From the NCBI GenBank assembly GCA_023920165.1, contig CP089275.1, forward strand, positions 2,542,001 through 2,606,000: a DNA stretch of 64,000 bases, written 5' to 3'. Under the pieces are notes generated by a model. The model saw only the letters and a list, made by a program, of their open reading frames with translations, did not search any database and had not been told where the DNA came from. This DNA is from Curvularia clavata (taxonomy: Eukaryota). Shown here piece by piece: positions 1-5,980 of this stretch. The number at the start of each line of letters is the position of its first letter. Position 1 is the stretch's first letter. The translations under genes and the position numbers were made by a program.

Positions 1-1593
1 ACAGCGTGCGAGAGCCTGGCGGCTAACACCTAATCGCTCTCCTCCTTGACGCTCTTCATGAGCAATCTGCTGATCAGCCTCGCGTTGAGCAAGTAGATCC
101 TCTCCAGCTCCCTTTGTAAGCACTCCTTGCTTCTGTATACGCTTCTTTTTACGCTGTCTACGTTCTGTAGCTGCCTCGTTAGCCTTTTCAAGGCTGGTAA
201 TTCGATCGCGTATTAGCTCAGCTGAAAGCATCATTATCTCTACTCCCTTTTTAAGCTGGCCAATCGCTGCAATAATTGAAGCTGGTGACGAACTTTTATG
301 CTGTCGAACGCGATTACTTATTAGTGTAGATTGAGCTTCAAGCTCGCGTACGTTGCTCGGCGTACAGGCCTGCCAGAGAGCTTCTGCGAGAGCTGGTAGA
401 GCTGGCGTAGTTGGCGTACGTAGCTGTACGTCAAGCTTTGACAGAACAGTGTCTGGCTGGAGAGGAACAAGGCCTGCGCCTTGAAAAGCTGAGCAGATAT
501 TGGCTGACGTGAACGATTGATCAAAGGCTGCCTTGAATGCTGGCAGAAACTCAAGCTTAGTGATATGGTTAATATGGTTGCGTATTAGGCTCTCCACCTC
601 ACGGCTATACGCGCGCTTCAATGGCGAGAAGCAGCCAACGTCAAGAGGCTGGAGCAGGTGAGACGAGTGAGGCGGCATACAGAGCGTGTAGATGTTGTTC
701 TCCTTATAGAGCTCTTGAAACGCAAGAGAGTTATGGCTCTCATGGCCGTTAAGGATAAGTAGACGGCGCGCGCCTACAACGCGAGTCTTTGTATAGGCGT
801 CAAAGTGCTTTAGCCACTCAACTCCTAGCTCGTTGGTCGTCCAGCCATTGTCGCTGACAGCGATCGCCCAGTTGCGTGGGATATCTGCCTCCTCGTACCA
901 GGCAGATAGGTGATACTTGCTAGTAAAGATTAGAAACGGTGGGATAGACTAGCTAGCTGTATTAATTCTAGCGATAAACGTCACCCACTCGCGACCACCT
1001 GGCTGAATGGCCTTTGGCCGGCCTCTTCTCTCTGACGCTGTAATGACAAGCTGAGTAGTAATCTTGCCCATTATAAAGCCAGCTTTGTTAAAGTTGTAGA
1101 CGTCCTCGTCACAGATGCCGTACTTGGCCTTTGTCTGCTCTATAAGCTTAAACCAGCTCTTAATTAAGACTGGATCTTCACATAGAGCTCTCTGTCTATT
1201 GTACGCCCGATTGAAACGTGTCGTAAGATTGTCTGTACGCTTGACAAAGTTGGCTGGCCACTTCTGCCCAACCTGGCCAGCGCTACGCGCAGCTAGTAGC
1301 TTATTAGCCATATCGCGCATAGCAGCGTACGTGGGCGCAAATCCACGTGAATCAAGATTGAGTATGTGGTCAACTATCACCTCCTCTTCTAGCTTAGTTA
1401 GCTTCTTTGAGTTGGGCTGGCAATCGCGTCGGGCAGTTACGCCAGCGCGTCGGCGGCGGATTGTTCGTTCAGACACGCTATAGATAGCAGCAGCACGACG
1501 ATTACTCTGTATTTGATGAGAATTAATAGAAGAAATAGCAAGCTGGATATCTGCTTCATTTGAGGCTAATAGAGTAGCTCTGCGTTGAGCCAT
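1..1593 (-). pseudogene. DDE_1/CENP-B HTH transposase, inactivated
   Basis: HTH N-terminus, then YNF(N)(K)AG, LLIL(N)GHESH and [23 protein letters not shown]->TAG stop at 949-951, with the frame continuing to the window edge. Confidence 0.92.
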
Positions 1594-1674
1594 TGTTCGT
1601 TATGATGGGAAAGGTGTGCAGAGTTCGTGAGGTGCGGCGCTCGCTTGCCTGCGGCGCTCGCTTATCCACAACGT
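1..1674 (-). mobile_element. pogo/Fot1-like (Tc1-mariner superfamily) DNA transposon, RIP-mutated, truncated by the window start
   Basis: The minus-strand terminus reads TA|ACGTTGTGGATAAGCGAGCGCCGCAGGCAAGCGAGCGCCGCA (TA target at 1675-1676). It contains a 14-bp internal direct repeat TGCGGCGCTCGCTT at 1633-1646 and 1650-1663. The transposase ATG is at 1593. Confidence 0.92.
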
Positions 1675-2170: not shown

Positions 2171-2206
2171 CGCGTCGCGAAACACGCGCGTGAACGTCTG
2201 ACGTCA
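2171..2206. promoter_or_regulatory. Cluster of CGCG (MCB/SCB-like) boxes plus a CRE palindrome
   Basis: CGCGTCGCGAAACACGCGCGTG (2171-2192) and TGACGTCA (2199-2206), about 150 bp upstream of the ORF at 2351. Confidence 0.4.
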
Positions 2207-2350
2207 AGCCCCCGTCGCGCCTCACCCTCACCTTCACCATTCACTCGCGCTGGCGCTGGCGCTCAGCCCGTATCATTCTTTTTCTGGTTACATATCTTCT
2301 CTTCTTCCCTGTCAGCATGAGCTTGTCATCTTGTTCCACCGTTTTCTCCC

Positions 2351-5035
2351 ATGATGCCTTCAAACCCCTTTGAAGCAGCACTTAGCCAACCAGAAAGCGA
2401 CTTGCCACATGCACAGCTCGTTACCCTGCTTTCTGTCGGCGAATTTAGTGATCCTTACCTTCCTACAATCGCAGAGAACTACCTAAGTGCCTTCTGCGAT
2501 CCCAGCAGATCGGAGGTACAACGAAGATGGATTGGCATCACTCTTGCGCGCATGCTGGAGAAGTCCGATCGTGTCGCGCACCTTCTACGACTGTCAGACC
2601 AGTTAAAGAAATTGGGTGTTATTATCGTGAGCCATGAGGAACAAGGAGTGATCAAAACCATCGCCGGCCTCATTATGCGACAAGGATTAGAGCAGGATAT
2701 CGAATACCACAAGTTTTGGCCGACCGAAAAGCTTGCTCATAGCGCGCTCGATTTTCCAAGACGCCCTGATTCGAGATGGATGAGCGATTTTCACACATTC
2801 CTCAATTGTTTTGACGAATCGACCATCAGCAACTTGAGTAATCAGAGTTATATTGGATACATTGCTTCTATGGCTACTTCAGACGGATTCACATGTGGAG
2901 AGCCTGTCAACGACATCTGTGCTGTCATCCTTGAGACTGGAATGCTGGCCATCATCGTCTCTGACATACACCTTGAAAACTGCCATTTCGTGGACATATC
3001 AGTCAGTCATATCATCAGTACACGATCGGAATCATCGAGGCCACACGACGTCCAAACCCGACCGACAGGATGCGAATCATGCAGCGTTATACTGTCACTC
3101 AAATCTATACCCTGGGCTTACTGTCTGAATTCTAGGCAGCGAATCGCGACGGAGATATCACTGTTGTTCAAGCGTTCAAAGGACGCTGTGCAATGGGAGG
3201 ACTACATCAAACGACATCAAAAGGCCCACGAAGCGCATCGCCGCATCTCTGACATCTCCGTCGATACAAACCCTTTGCCATCGTGGCAAGATCGGCAACA
3301 GAAGTCGCCTTGCGGTCGCCCGTCACATTGCTTAGCAGATCAATCAAGTCTCCAAAAACCCTCCAAACTCTGTCACGATTCTTTATCATACGCACGGCCA
3401 CGTCGAACTAGGTCGCATACATCACTACAAGAAGAAAACAAAAGTTTGTCGTCACAGTGCAGACATGTAGAATGCAGCAAGGAAAGACAGACTCACGCTT
3501 CTCGAGCCGCCAAGCAAAACGCCTTGAAAAAGCTAGGTTTGCAGTCTGGTAACGTCGATGGATACGATCAAAAGGAAAGAGGGCAACAACAGACGGACTC
3601 AGACGCGCCCAGTACAGGATCATCATCCAAGGGGAAGGAGGTTACCAAGTCAGGCAATGTGCATATTGGACACACGGTCAAAGATGACGAAGAACATCCT
3701 CCAACTCAGAAAAGGTCAAAGAAACGAGCTAGTACCAAGCGTAAGGCGGGTTTGCAGCTGGCCAAGAACGGGGACCATATGAAGAGGTCGCGGGTACACA
3801 CGGATAGCCATGCAGACTTGACTATCACAGCGAAAATAGAACGAGATCGACCACAAATACCCGCTAAACCATTCTCATCTGCGTTGTTCTCCCGACACTC
3901 ATTGATCGAAGGATTGGAAGGTTCACAGGAGCTAGCTGATTCTGATGCATCATTCAAAAAGCCAACACTGCCTGCACCGAGCGCTCGATATCCGTCAACT
4001 CCAACAAAGCCGAAACAACAAGTCCTAGAGACACAACGAAGACTACAGATCTCGAGAGTTCCAAGGTCTTTCGATGTCGATATTTTCTCCCAGATGCCAT
4101 CATCACCACCGATACCCTATCAACCAAACGAGGGAATGGGTTGGTCACGAGAAACTGCAACTGAGGCAGCAATATTATCAAGCAACAGCAAACCTGTACC
4201 TGCATCGCCAAACGCGGAATCAACAGCAATATCTGGTCACGCAGATAATGATGATGTTGCATTTGAGAAACGAACAGGGGATTCCCAGATTGCGAGAAGC
4301 GATCCTTTCACACGGAGGTCCAAGGGTGGAAAAATTACATCTTTCCTACGTCGTTTGACAGGAGAAGAACCAATAGATGTAGCTTCTAACCTGGGAACCG
4401 ACGATTCGCAAATTGCACTGGCTGGAAATATAGATTCTAGTCCTGCTAGATTGGATGGAGCAGTGATTGAGCCACTTCCACAGCCCAGGTCCGGTCGGAA
4501 GAAGACGAACCACCCTGCTCTAGCTGGCACGCAGGAAATTGACGGGGGTCATGGTGTGGAGAATGGCATTCTGAATGGCGGTATCTGGTATGATGAGCAA
4601 CGCTCTTCAGAATCTGATCTTACGCCGGTTTATTTCAGTTCCTCGCCGCCAAGATTGGGATCGCTCACCAGTCATAGCTCAACTTCTGCTACGCCCTTGC
4701 TTTCTCCTCACTCTGCACTATTTTCATCGGATGTTAACGAAATTTGTCGGGAAACAAGTCCGGAACCTTTCCAGCGCAATTGACACAATCTTTTGGCTCG
4801 CGCATCGAAAGAGGTCGTGCATTGTATTGTTGCTAGCGATTCTGACCCTAGCGATATTGAGAAGTTCATGAAAGATCATAATCTTGTACTGCAGTCGGTG
4901 TTAAGCCGATATAACAATGACTACGAACGCGTGTTTGTAGACATGGAGGCCAAGCGTGAAGCGGTCTGCGAAGAGCTCGATGGCGTCATTGAGCTGAAAG
5001 CTGATGAAGGGAAAAAGGTTGATACTCCCATCTAG
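2351..5035 (+). CDS. Large hypothetical protein, candidate meiotic axis protein (Red1/Rec10/SYCP2-like architecture), interrupted by an in-frame TGA at 4781-4783
   Basis: An 810-aa ORF, with the 4793-5035 ORF in the same frame. Helical N-terminus, beta-rich PH-like segment, long S/P/K/R disordered middle, helical/coiled-coil tail. The gene is well supported; the function is inference. Confidence 0.6.
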
Positions 5036-5500
5036 ACTTGTACAATACTTATTGTATGTTACAGTTGGGATGTTCTTCTAGACCACAGCACCGGTCATTA
5101 AAGCCTGCATTGCTGATCTACCCCATCAGCATTACCAAGCAACGAGGAGACGTGTCCAATGTGTGTAGTATGTTTACCCCAGGAAATCTAGCCAAGACGA
5201 ATCGAACCCCGATTGAACTAGCCGCAAGTGACTTAGTTTCATGCACGCTCGCAGAACAATATATAGGTCGGCGGAGCGCCAAAGCTAATATCCGCTCAAC
5301 GCAGCCCAGTTCTTCGCCATTGCTATTGTAGCAATCTGCAGACAAAAGCTTTTCACCATTTCTTTTCTGTTCAGCAACAGCAATAAATTTAGTTGCCCGT
5401 AAATTTCGACCTCAAACTGACACTCCTCCATTCCGCGAACCTGTTACGCATACCAGTCACAACTGGAGAAGGCTGGAGAAAGGCAATACTCGACTCCAAG

Positions 5501-5980
5501 ATGTTGTCAATCACTCCCTCCTATACCCACATTCCCAGCTTCTATCGTATCTTCTTCACCTATCTCGACCCCCTCATCTGCGTCTGGGGTGCATACATGG
5601 ATTTTTTCCTGCCTTCGCTTGTCCTCTCTTCACATATTCCCTCGCCACCTGTCCCAGACCAGGGTCATGCCATGGTTCTAACACAGCGTGGAGGTGGCAT
5701 GCTGAACTTTGGCATTGTATCTGCTGTGCTGCTGCGATATACAGAAGACGTCAACGTGTGGGCAATCGTACAAGTGGCGTGTTTTGTGGTGGACCTGGCC
5801 TATTATTGGAGTGTATGGCGTGTTTTGAACAGCCAGGGTCGCTTGAGTCCTGCGCTATGGCGGGCCGAGGATTGGGGGAGTGTGGGTATTACCGCAGTTG
5901 CGGGGGCAGTTCGGTTGGCGTTCTTGATGGGGGTGGGGTTCAACAGGAGAAGTGTCATCAAGGGTGCGAAGGGGCAGTAA
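5501..5980 (+). CDS. Small multi-pass membrane protein (fungal DUF7704-like), 159 aa
   Basis: ATG at 5501; about 4 hydrophobic helices; YRIFFTYLDP...W.IVQ...VDLAY pattern. Confidence 0.7.
   Translation: MLSITPSYTHIPSFYRIFFTYLDPLICVWGAYMDFFLPSLVLSSHIPSPPVPDQGHAMVLTQRGGGMLNFGIVSAVLLRYTEDVNVWAIVQVACFVVDLAYYWSVWRVLNSQGRLSPALWRAEDWGSVGITAVAGAVRLAFLMGVGFNRRSVIKGAKGQ

Follow-up and report, generated by a model that had tools for sequence, protein, structure and literature searches.

A premature TGA at a conserved leucine codon of a putative meiotic axis core gene in a Pleosporales fungus

An in-frame TGA interrupts a gene whose product resembles, in modeled fold and domain architecture, the meiotic axis core proteins of the SYCP2/Red1/Rec10 type, and which would be their counterpart in the Pleosporales. 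With a probability of roughly two in three, we take this stop to be genuine and to have arisen in this lineage by a nonsense substitution in a conserved Leu codon, from which a hypomorphic or null allele would be expected. Among the three readings offered by a first-pass annotation of the same DNA, a nonsense allele in a decaying gene is the best supported, both by the Leu that occupies the stop column in homologues and by the recurrence of the TGA in three other sequencing runs.

Results

Reading frame on both sides of the stop

The ORF that contains the gene spans positions 2321-4783 (+ strand) of the window, by which we mean the whole 64,000-nucleotide stretch of DNA that was analyzed. The first Met lies at 2351, and the annotated product (P0001, 809 aa) starts from the second Met at 2354. 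The features considered below are as follows.

2351..4783, + strand: ORF of the axis-core-like gene, ending with the premature TGA; 810 codons when counted from the first Met
2351..3250, + strand: N-terminal folded region, residues 1-300, in an AlphaFold2 model
4172..4246, + strand: near-invariant motif ILSSNSKPVPASPNAESTAISGHAD, I608-D632, in the disordered middle (invariant alignment columns)
4781..4783, + strand: premature stop TGA, followed by C at 4784; hydrophobic column, inside the first predicted helix of the C-terminal domain
4784..5035, + strand: cut-off tail of 83 sense codons plus TAG, homologous by alignment to the conserved 84-residue end of the family's proteins
5070, + strand: polyadenylation site; 14 non-templated A follow 5070 in X9 record 17, where the genome reads TGTTC

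Upstream of the TGA the ORF closes as ...PEPFQRN; beyond it, in the context TGA CAC AAT, the same frame reads HNLLARASKEVVHCIV... for 83 open codons to the TAG at 5033-5035, and the full protein would have 894 residues if the TGA were read through. The first-pass description of a single in-frame TGA followed by C, with the frame open for 83 codons past it, is therefore correct. A run of 83 stop-free codons has a probability of 0.015 by a base-composition estimate; however, because 6.4% of the 4371 stop-to-stop runs in all six frames of the window are at least as long, openness by itself is no more than suggestive, and it is homology that decides.

The only consensus-like intron donor near the stop is GTATGA at 4588, and its use would remove a conserved SSPP...SHSSTSA block; the other candidates (GTCGGG, GTCCGG, and GTTAAC) are poor. 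Thus, as the annotation had held, no convincing donor spans the stop. Moreover, the homologues are colinear through the site, so no intron is expected there.

The TGA in other runs and in a transcript

The TGA at 4781-4783 is genuine and not an assembly error. It is unchanged in contigs of three other runs (X4, X8, and X9), which come from three studies, and these contigs contain no joints. Record 4 of X4 covers 3592-4848 and has three differences from the window, all outside the TGA; record 11 of X8 covers 4399-5221 and has a single difference, at 4458; record 17 of X9 covers 4558-5070 and has none. The possibility of a sequencing error, raised in the first-pass annotation, is refuted by these three carriers, as far as contigs can tell. 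Over the pieces compared, less than about 1% separates the sampled carriers from the window. A further run, X14, represents a more divergent lineage, 2.2% different from the window; its differences include five G>T and eight A>G, of which three and two, respectively, fall outside the 40 of 70 differences listed.

The non-templated A14 at 5070, together with the Illumina adapter carried by another X9 piece, points to X9 record 17 being an unspliced and unedited mRNA with a polyA end, in which the TGA and all of the tail are present. In this one RNA-like contig the polyA site lies 35 nt past the downstream TAG and 287 nt past the TGA. The gene is therefore transcribed in some sample, the stage of which is not stated. 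The annotation had suggested looking in sexual-stage RNA for an intron or for a TGA-to-TGG edit, and neither is present in this contig.

Homologues at the stop column

Relatives of the gene are annotated as "hypothetical protein" throughout the Pleosporales, and the family comprises 316 relatives at E<=0.001. Of 47 aligned homologues, 44 have Leu at the stop column, one has Ile, and one has Val; the remaining homologue is without the region. A comparison with relatives, which the first-pass annotation had proposed, thus finds a sense codon in 46 of 47. Exactly 84 residues follow this column in 41 of the 47, and none terminates at or near FQRN; orthologues all ending there was the pattern that the annotation had named as contrary to its interpretation. 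The 83-aa tail aligns end to end with orthologue C-termini, is identical to that of the closest (P0002) at 46 of 79 positions, and keeps the invariant columns I826, D842, F862, E866, and L876. By this alignment, the conserved C-terminal part of the family is homologous to the tail, which is the deciding point in favor of a real frame.

Searches beyond the aligned homologues produced one lead. A metagenome scan with the exact 32-base stop context, in which the middle base of the stop was set to N, gave no matches. When metagenome contigs were searched with the tail alignment, 240 stretches matched patterns taken from the near-invariant central motif, and none was confirmed against the 83-aa tail. 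A fragment search among shorter proteins (residues 700-894) gave one match in 320 candidates, a 72-aa tail ORF (P0049) that was called on a separate 3935-base contig and starts inside the tail. P0049 is the product expected of a gene caller if the same upstream stop is present on its contig, and we regard it as weak evidence. The short family members look like fragments of full-length genes, starting upstream of the stop column or at contig ends.

Family identity of the encoded protein

The AlphaFold2 model of the head (mean pLDDT 88.5, pTM 0.88) consists of helices at residues 6-152, strands at 167-273, and a helix at 276-299. By prediction, an armadillo (ARM)-like helical domain takes up about residues 1-152, and a PH-like beta-sandwich, closed by a C-terminal helix, takes up about 167-299. 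The model thus shows the arrangement expected of axis core proteins, in which a complete PH-like domain comes straight after an ARM-like one. With the head as query, the sole Foldseek match at E<=0.001 was SYCP2 (5IWZ; E 1.7e-4, prob 1.00, 283 columns). The top match in VIA-align (wide) was 5iwz_A (Z 12.4, 252 residues aligned, model 1-293), which is the only one among the matches listed to cover both head domains; the next matches, at Z 12.1-10, cover one domain each. The named language-model neighbors included SYCP2_SLD (0.87), Red1 PF07964 (0.85), and SYCP2 (0.83), all under the 0.9 lead threshold and taken as leads only.

Sequence families give no such match. Pfam returned no families at E<=1 for the window protein in three forms, and none for P0003 and P0032; no Red1/SYCP2 Pfam family was found in 35 distant homologues (37 homologues scanned in all). 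The curated models Red1 PF07964, SYCP2_ARLD PF18581, and SYCP2_SLD PF18584 do not match the protein, and a sequence-profile search of the PDB gave no matches. The first-pass assignment to a Red1/SYCP2-like protein therefore stands by fold and architecture and fails by sequence family. The near-invariant motif in the disordered middle, ILSSNSKPVPASPNAESTAISGHAD, may be a partner-binding motif, either a HORMA closure motif or a cohesin-interacting motif.

In the C-terminal 111 residues the prediction places two helices, one at 806-828 and a longer one at 833-890, the latter with pLDDT 81-95. The tail accordingly comprises the end of the first helix plus the long second one, is strongly amphipathic across the family, and begins behind a stop that falls on a hydrophobic column. 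The annotation had called the region behind the stop helical, with which the predicted helices agree; the alignment to orthologues shows it to be conserved as well. Its further description as a coiled coil is unproven, since the hydrophobic period is 3.6-3.7, against 3.5 for a heptad, and there is no clear heptad register. Red1's C-terminal domain assembles into tetramers and filaments (PMC6349405; bioRxiv 10.64898/2026.01.19.700424), and, in the available text of the former, Red1 minus its last seven residues gave a spore viability of 2% (PMC6349405). By analogy with Red1, the tail may be a self-assembly module.

Constraint in the gene and its tail

Several hints of relaxed constraint were found. 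Trp800, nearly invariant in the family, is Arg in the window lineage, and Pro217, also nearly invariant, is Ser in the window strain alone, all four compared runs having Pro. Between the window and X14, pN/pS over 2351-4458 is 0.65 (26 nonsynonymous and 12 synonymous differences, with about 29 nonsynonymous expected if neutral). However, gene-wide decay is not demonstrated, because departures from near-invariant columns (18/118 in the window) are not clearly more frequent than in the intact closest relative P0002 (15/115) or in P0041 (15/114). The tail has no second stop or frameshift and no excess decay; its unique changes, added up across 11 outgroups, number 74 in the window and 71 in P0002. 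An undecayed tail fits a young mutation and continued translation equally. A literature search on the decay of meiosis genes in asexual Pleosporales returned nothing pertinent.

Discussion

A probable young nonsense allele

We propose that the stop arose by TTA to TGA, which would be the simplest path and is the only one-step route from Leu, TTA being the presumed ancestral codon. This T-to-G transversion in a Leu codon agrees with the annotation's statement that the change is not of the RIP type. Termination at 4783 would give an 809/810-residue protein that retains the ARM-PH head and the conserved central motifs and loses the last 84 residues, which make up most of the predicted two-helix amphipathic C-terminal domain. 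Since the corresponding domain is the assembly module in Red1, the allele would by analogy be a strong hypomorph or null for axis assembly. A mutation that is recent against the shallow divergence among the isolates sampled would explain why the tail is still open, without any need for it to be translated. Relaxed selection on meiosis in the lineage may accompany the allele.

Alternative explanations

Functional readthrough is the best of the alternatives, albeit an unlikely one. It holds that the UGA-C leaks, that a small share of full-length protein, carrying Trp, Cys, or Arg at 811, is made beside a major tail-less isoform, and that the tail is under selection, so that the stop would serve axis self-assembly as a dosage valve. 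Termination is weak at a UGA with C behind it; some full-length protein is therefore probably made, and low-level readthrough may occur here. The C directly after the stop is in its favor, as are the intact tail, which keeps the family invariants and changes no faster than that of P0002, and the mRNA 3' end just past the downstream TAG, as if the old 3' UTR were retained. UGA C and UGA CU contexts are described as promoting readthrough in fungi and animals in the available part of PMC4207609. However, no readthrough signal was found at the UGA-C in conservation, context, or downstream RNA folding. The stop is not conserved (a sense codon in all but one homologue, as above), the context is UGA CA, which agrees with the fungal core UGA CU(A) described in that source at the C alone, and the 126-nt stretch beginning at 4775 folds no more stably than shuffled versions (MFE -26.1 versus a shuffle mean of -30.2, z = +1.16; 179/200 shuffles fold at least as well). 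The features that mark fungal readthrough, UGA CU(A) and a conserved stop plus extension or an RNA structure, are thus not found at this site. An open tail is also expected without selection, since the TGA carriers are so close to the window, and Leu is absent from the residues reported to be inserted at UGA. Programmed readthrough, as the annotation had suggested it, is thus without positive support. Still more speculative, and in our view improbable, is the idea that the UGA-C, at a hydrophobic core position of the putative assembly domain, is kept rather than merely tolerated, in which case it would set the ratio of an assembly-incompetent isoform, bearing the head and partner-binding motifs, to rare full-length protein and so regulate axis filament formation, a meiotic scaffold thereby coming under a translational switch.

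We give little credence to stage-specific A-to-I editing of UGA to UGG in sexual development, by which the full-length protein would be made only in meiosis, as with the edits that correct premature stops in Fusarium and Neurospora. A third-base edit would indeed yield a sense codon, but Trp would then stand in for a conserved aliphatic residue. The stop-correcting edits known in fungi turn UAG into UGG, the edited A coming after a U, whereas here the A follows G, and an A preceded by G is a disfavored editing context. To our knowledge, mRNA editing has not been reported in Dothideomycetes. Position 4783 is A in the one RNA contig, although contigs drop minor variants and the developmental stage is not stated. 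Meiosis genes are a class with known restorative editing in Sordariomycetes (PMC5496914; PMC13123824), but UGA is treated as an unedited terminator in the accessible portion of the second source, and the available portions of the fungal mRNA-editing literature that we searched contain no report of editing for Dothideomycetes.

A natural split, in which the tail is made separately from an internal start (either the ATG found in frame at residue 28 of the tail or some non-AUG codon) and acts in trans like an SYCP3/ASY4/Rec27-type partner, is similarly hard to credit. SYCP2-type proteins elsewhere do pair with short coiled-coil paralogues (PMC8131943, in the part available), and a gene caller gave a 72-aa product from the tail. 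However, no homologue is divided at the stop column, the sole transcript contig is continuous across the stop, the first tail ATG would drop the first helix, and eukaryotic ribosomes are not expected to reinitiate behind an ORF of 810 codons. The annotation's proposal of a split is therefore not supported by the 47 homologues. Its statement that S. pombe encodes the tail separately as Rec27 is imprecise: in the available text of Tromer et al. 2021 (PMC8131943), Rec27 figures as a paralogue and SYCP3-type partner of Rec10 rather than as a tail detached from it.

The least probable explanation is an artefact, either a sequencing or assembly error or an intron removing the stop, for which we found no support in the contigs, the alignment, or the donors, and against which stand the same TGA in runs from other samples and studies, an RNA-like contig without a joint, and, for the intron, which we rejected, unspliced RNA, colinear homologues, and no acceptable donor. 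An alternative nuclear genetic code was rejected, as we know of none in the Pezizomycotina. Selenocysteine at the UGA was likewise rejected, fungi being described as without the machinery in the available part of PMC4207609.

Taken as a whole, the first-pass interpretation is borne out in part: it holds for the stop, the tail, and the lack of an intron or a RIP change, whereas sequencing error is refuted and programmed readthrough and a natural split find no support.

Significance

Red1/SYCP2-type proteins diverge very fast, which accounts for the "hypothetical protein" annotations across the Pleosporales, and recognition of the family would open a way into the biology of the meiotic axis across a large, plant-associated group of fungi. 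Being common to several isolates, the truncating allele would be a marker for whether the lineage has lost or is losing meiosis, and it would let nature test whether the C-terminal domain is needed as much as it is in yeast. Regulated readthrough, if it occurs, would add a new type of control over axis assembly, for instance in a rarely sexual fungus.

Comparison with known systems

Mouse SYCP2 (5IWZ) shares with the modeled fungal protein a head in which an armadillo-like helical domain is followed by a PH/Spt16M-like sandwich, and in each the middle is long and disordered and the C-terminus helical. In contrast, identity over the head is 10-11%, with TM-scores of 0.38/0.32 and an rmsd of 9.5 (Foldseek) or 6.4 (VIA), and the fungal protein is much shorter and without a Pfam SYCP2_ARLD/SLD match.

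The likeness to Red1/Rec10 extends to the ARM-PH head, conserved short motifs in a disordered center, and a C-terminal helical domain of roughly 95 residues (bioRxiv 10.64898/2026.01.19.700424, in the part available). The lengths are comparable, Red1 having 827 residues according to the same text and the protein described here 894 if read through. The differences are that PF07964 matches neither this protein nor any of the 37 homologues scanned, that the tail period is 3.6-3.7 and not 3.5, and that oligomerization is suggested here only by analogy.

The premature-stop-corrected (PSC) genes of Fusarium graminearum, such as AMD1 and PUK1, are likewise sexual-stage genes with an in-frame genomic stop and a conserved frame behind it. 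Theirs, however, is a UAG edited to UGG in a Sordariomycete, whereas here a Dothideomycete has UGA, in which the A comes after G, and the only RNA contig is unedited.

The Ustilago readthrough genes Tpi1, Art1, and Rpe1, as described in the available part of PMC4207609, also have a UGA followed by C and a functional-looking extension behind it. Here, in contrast, the second downstream base is A and not U, the stop is not conserved, and the extension is part of the ancestral protein rather than an added targeting signal. On present evidence, the stop in the axis-core-like gene is an ordinary young nonsense mutation.

A premature stop in a conserved C-terminal domain

The gene under study is laid out on the plus strand as follows.

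2321-4783, plus strand: uninterrupted open reading frame, first Met at 2351, closed by TGA at 4781-4783
Through 5035, plus strand: tail of 83 sense codons in frame past the TGA, closed by TAG at 5033-5035

Coordinates and peptide strings in the first-pass annotation match the sequence exactly, and the base 3' of the TGA is C (context UGA CA). Base composition gives p = 0.015 for 83 codons staying open; because 6.4% of all 4371 stop-to-stop runs in the window are as long as the tail or longer, the open frame alone is weak evidence. Of 8000 candidates scored against the read-through product, 48 proteins passed E<=0.001. Every homologue that carries a name is from Pleosporales (Alternaria, Exserohilum, Stemphylium, Clathrospora, Pyrenochaeta, Plenodomus, Neocucurbitaria, Bipolaris, and Pyrenophora), and all are annotated as hypothetical. 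The window's own annotated product, P0001, has 809 aa and terminates at the TGA; the nearest relative, P0002 (888 aa, 67-69% identity), has no stop at this column.

The window protein, with X at the stop, was aligned with the 47 homologues other than P0001. At the stop column, 44 of the 47 have Leu, one has Ile, and one has Val, P0048 being without the region; distant family members also have Ile or Val here. Exactly 84 residues follow the column in 41 of the 47, the other lengths being 80 (P0002), 83 (P0028), 74 (P0033), 79 (P0047), 92 (P0044), and 1 (P0048). The aliphatic column and the shared length show that the tail belongs to the ancestral protein and is conserved in length, and that the TGA has replaced an aliphatic residue that is otherwise conserved. 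Among Leu codons, TTA alone leads to TGA by a single change; a T-to-G transversion in a presumed ancestral TTA is thus the simplest history. Such a change is not RIP-type, as the first-pass annotation had noted.

Residues 784-894 were modelled from 34 sequences with the stop read as Trp, the residue expected from readthrough or editing. Helices are predicted at 789-801, 806-828, and 833-890 (pLDDT 81-95 over the long helix), with the stop inside the second. Across 44 family members, hydrophobicity has a strong period of 3.6-3.7 residues, the stop column is hydrophobic, and no heptad register stands out. Given this period, the domain is best modelled as an amphipathic helical module: the coiled-coil tail proposed earlier holds as helical and conserved, with a canonical coiled coil undemonstrated.

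Identity of the gene

The Red1/SYCP2 identity assigned at first pass finds its support in fold and architecture, not in sequence models. Pfam gave no match for the protein, the tail, the read-through form, or two orthologues, no Red1/SYCP2 Pfam family was found among 35 distant relatives scanned, and a PDB profile search gave no match. A profile search of 1.84 billion representatives found 316 relatives at E<=0.001; the family is therefore large, though uncurated. The model of residues 1-300 (37-sequence alignment; mean pLDDT 88.5, pTM 0.88) predicts a helical ARM-like domain to ca. 152, then a beta-sandwich with a long capping helix (167-299). Foldseek matched a single structure at E<=0.001, the N-terminal region of SYCP2 (5IWZ; E 1.7e-4, TM 0.38/0.32, 283 columns). 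VIA-align ranked 5iwz_A first among 48,161 chains (Z 12.4, rmsd 6.4, 252 residues, model 1-293). Matches to an ARM or a PH domain singly reach an equal Z, and among the matches listed 5iwz_A alone has aligned residues over both domains. Named language-model neighbours (SYCP2_SLD 0.87, Red1 PF07964 0.85, SYCP2 0.83) all fall below the tool's 0.9 mark and serve as leads only. Because predicted fold and layout agree, our working identity for the gene product is an axis core protein of the SYCP2/Red1 type.

The stop in other runs and in RNA

The gene or part of it is present in 19 listed runs from 13 studies, and contigs from four (X4, X8, X9, and X14) were compared with the window over 2200-5300.

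Contigs from three runs compared with the window
X4, record 4: 3592-4848; three differences (3747, 4284, 4458)
X8, record 11: 4399-5221; one difference (4458)
X9, record 17: 4558-5070; no difference

None of these differences falls in the TGA, which is therefore unchanged in all three. The stop is common to at least three other isolates or samples besides the window, and on these contigs the sequencing or assembly error raised earlier is rejected. X9 record 17 ends in 14 A's foreign to the genome (TGTTC from 5071), and another X9 piece starts with an Illumina adapter; the simplest account of X9 is therefore polyadenylated RNA whose 3' end lies 35 nt past the downstream TAG. In this one RNA contig the stop-bearing gene is transcribed, and its dominant transcript is unspliced over the stop, with an unedited A at 4783. 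No joints were reported in any of the four runs. The sole consensus-like donor, GTATGA at 4588, would delete a conserved block if used, in agreement with the earlier remark that no convincing donor spans the stop. An intron removing the stop is ruled out. P0049, a 72-aa ORF starting within the tail on a separate 3935-base contig, points weakly to an upstream stop there too.

X14 spans the stop site and differs from the window at 66 of 3064 positions (2.2%; 2234-5297). Forty of the 70 differences are itemized, all at or before 4458; further X14 changes include three G>T and two A>G. X14 bears the organism label of the likely source and is 2.2% different at this gene, so that one name may cover a divergent lineage or a cryptic species.

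Other features of the window

1-1599, minus strand: pogo/Tc5-type DNA transposase (HTH_Tnp_Tc5 and HTH_psq, 952-1596; DDE_1, 1-948, E 8.6e-32)
5501-5980, plus strand: small neighbouring gene for a DUF7704 protein (Pfam E 1.2e-19)

The transposase frame extends past the window start and has one in-frame TAG (949-951), the second single in-frame stop in this window, possibly derived from CAG via a RIP-like C-to-T change. The DUF7704 protein is hydrophobic and probably a membrane protein; its gene has no evident link to the premature stop.

Alternative readings of the stop

The main rival to a truncating allele is a leaky stop yielding two isoforms, which we consider unlikely. A UGA with C after it terminates weakly, and basal leakage probably gives a little full-length protein. 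The programmed readthrough proposed at first pass is unsupported: the stop is not conserved among homologues, the context is UGA CA, where the fungal readthrough core is UGA CU(A) in the available text of PMC4207609, and the downstream 126 nt are no more structured than shuffles (z = +1.16). A-to-I editing of UGA to UGG would also restore the frame. Against it, the edited A would follow G, the single RNA contig, of unspecified stage, is unedited, and the host is a Dothideomycete, whereas the fungal stop corrections described in the excerpts of PMC5496914 and PMC13123824 convert UAG to UGG in Sordariomycetes. A separately translated tail, the natural split of the first-pass annotation, is rejected: none of the 47 aligned homologues is divided at the stop column or ends near FQRN, the last residues before the TGA. 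Rec27, cited there as a separately encoded tail, is instead a paralogous partner of Rec10 in the portion of PMC8131943 at hand. Selenocysteine at UGA is excluded for fungi, according to the available part of PMC4207609.

Age of the allele and selection

Over the pieces compared, the TGA carriers X4, X8, and X9 are separated from the window by only 7, 9, and ca. 17 differences. The intact tail carries little information, because at such divergence its 249 bases should have gained few mutations or none. Unique changes relative to 11 outgroups (summed) number 74 for the window and 71 for P0002 in the tail; over the 50 residues that precede the stop, they number 53 and 19. Counted leave-one-out over 44 sequences (fragments P0033, P0044, P0047, and P0048 dropped), the window departs from near-invariant columns at 18/118, P0002 at 15/115, P0041 at 15/114, and the next highest at 8/116. 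Nine of the window's 18 departures are common to P0002, and five of the nine private ones lie within residues 795-872, Trp800 to Arg among them. This near-invariant Trp800, 11 codons before the stop, is Arg throughout the lineage (4748-4750); near-invariant Pro217 of the PH-like domain is Ser (TCA, 2999) in the window strain alone and Pro (CCA) in the four runs compared. The 38 itemized coding differences between the window and X14 comprise 26 nonsynonymous and 12 synonymous (pN/pS 0.65), where site counts predict ca. 29 nonsynonymous under neutrality. P0002 is the sole close relative whose frame is intact, and in the conserved helix just past the stop column it carries R814C, K817E, and a 4-residue deletion. 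Evolution of the C-terminal domain seems unusually rapid across the whole clade. Taken together, these results hint at weak constraint in the clade, at the C-terminus especially, and fall short of proving decay.

The stop is thus a real premature one, at a conserved Leu within the helical C-terminal domain of a gene resembling SYCP2/Red1. Most likely (confidence about 0.68), the allele is young and truncates a meiotic scaffold on which selection is weak in this lineage; of the earlier proposal, the nonsense allele is favoured and decay is unproven. The finding is sound, though of an ordinary kind; it is chiefly valuable as a marker of sexual status in Curvularia clavata and as a pointer to an unannotated axis-protein family in Pleosporales.

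Comparison with Red1

Tromer et al. (2021) recognize axis core proteins by a full PH domain and a C-terminal coiled coil (PMC8131943, available portion). The modelled window protein appears to fit this description, with a predicted helical C-terminus of no clear heptad register. Its long, low-complexity, disordered middle is poorly conserved apart from a few near-invariant motifs, among them two successive blocks, the second reading SDPF..R..K.TSF.RRLTGE and the first being:

4172-4246, plus strand: near-invariant 25-residue motif I608-D632, ILSSNSKPVPASPNAESTAISGHAD

By analogy with Red1, both are candidates for a HORMA closure motif or a cohesin (Rec8) interacting motif. Red1's C-terminal domain builds tetramers that assemble into filaments, and deleting the last seven residues of this domain eliminates the filaments, with spore viability at 2% (PMC6349405, as excerpted); by this analogy, the stop at 4783 should disable self-assembly of the axis protein. 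Overall, as in the Red1 layout of ARM-PH head, motif-bearing middle, and helical C-terminus (bioRxiv 10.64898/2026.01.19.700424, in the part available), the window protein combines a predicted ARM-PH head and a low-complexity middle with a conserved helical C-terminus of ca. 95 residues.
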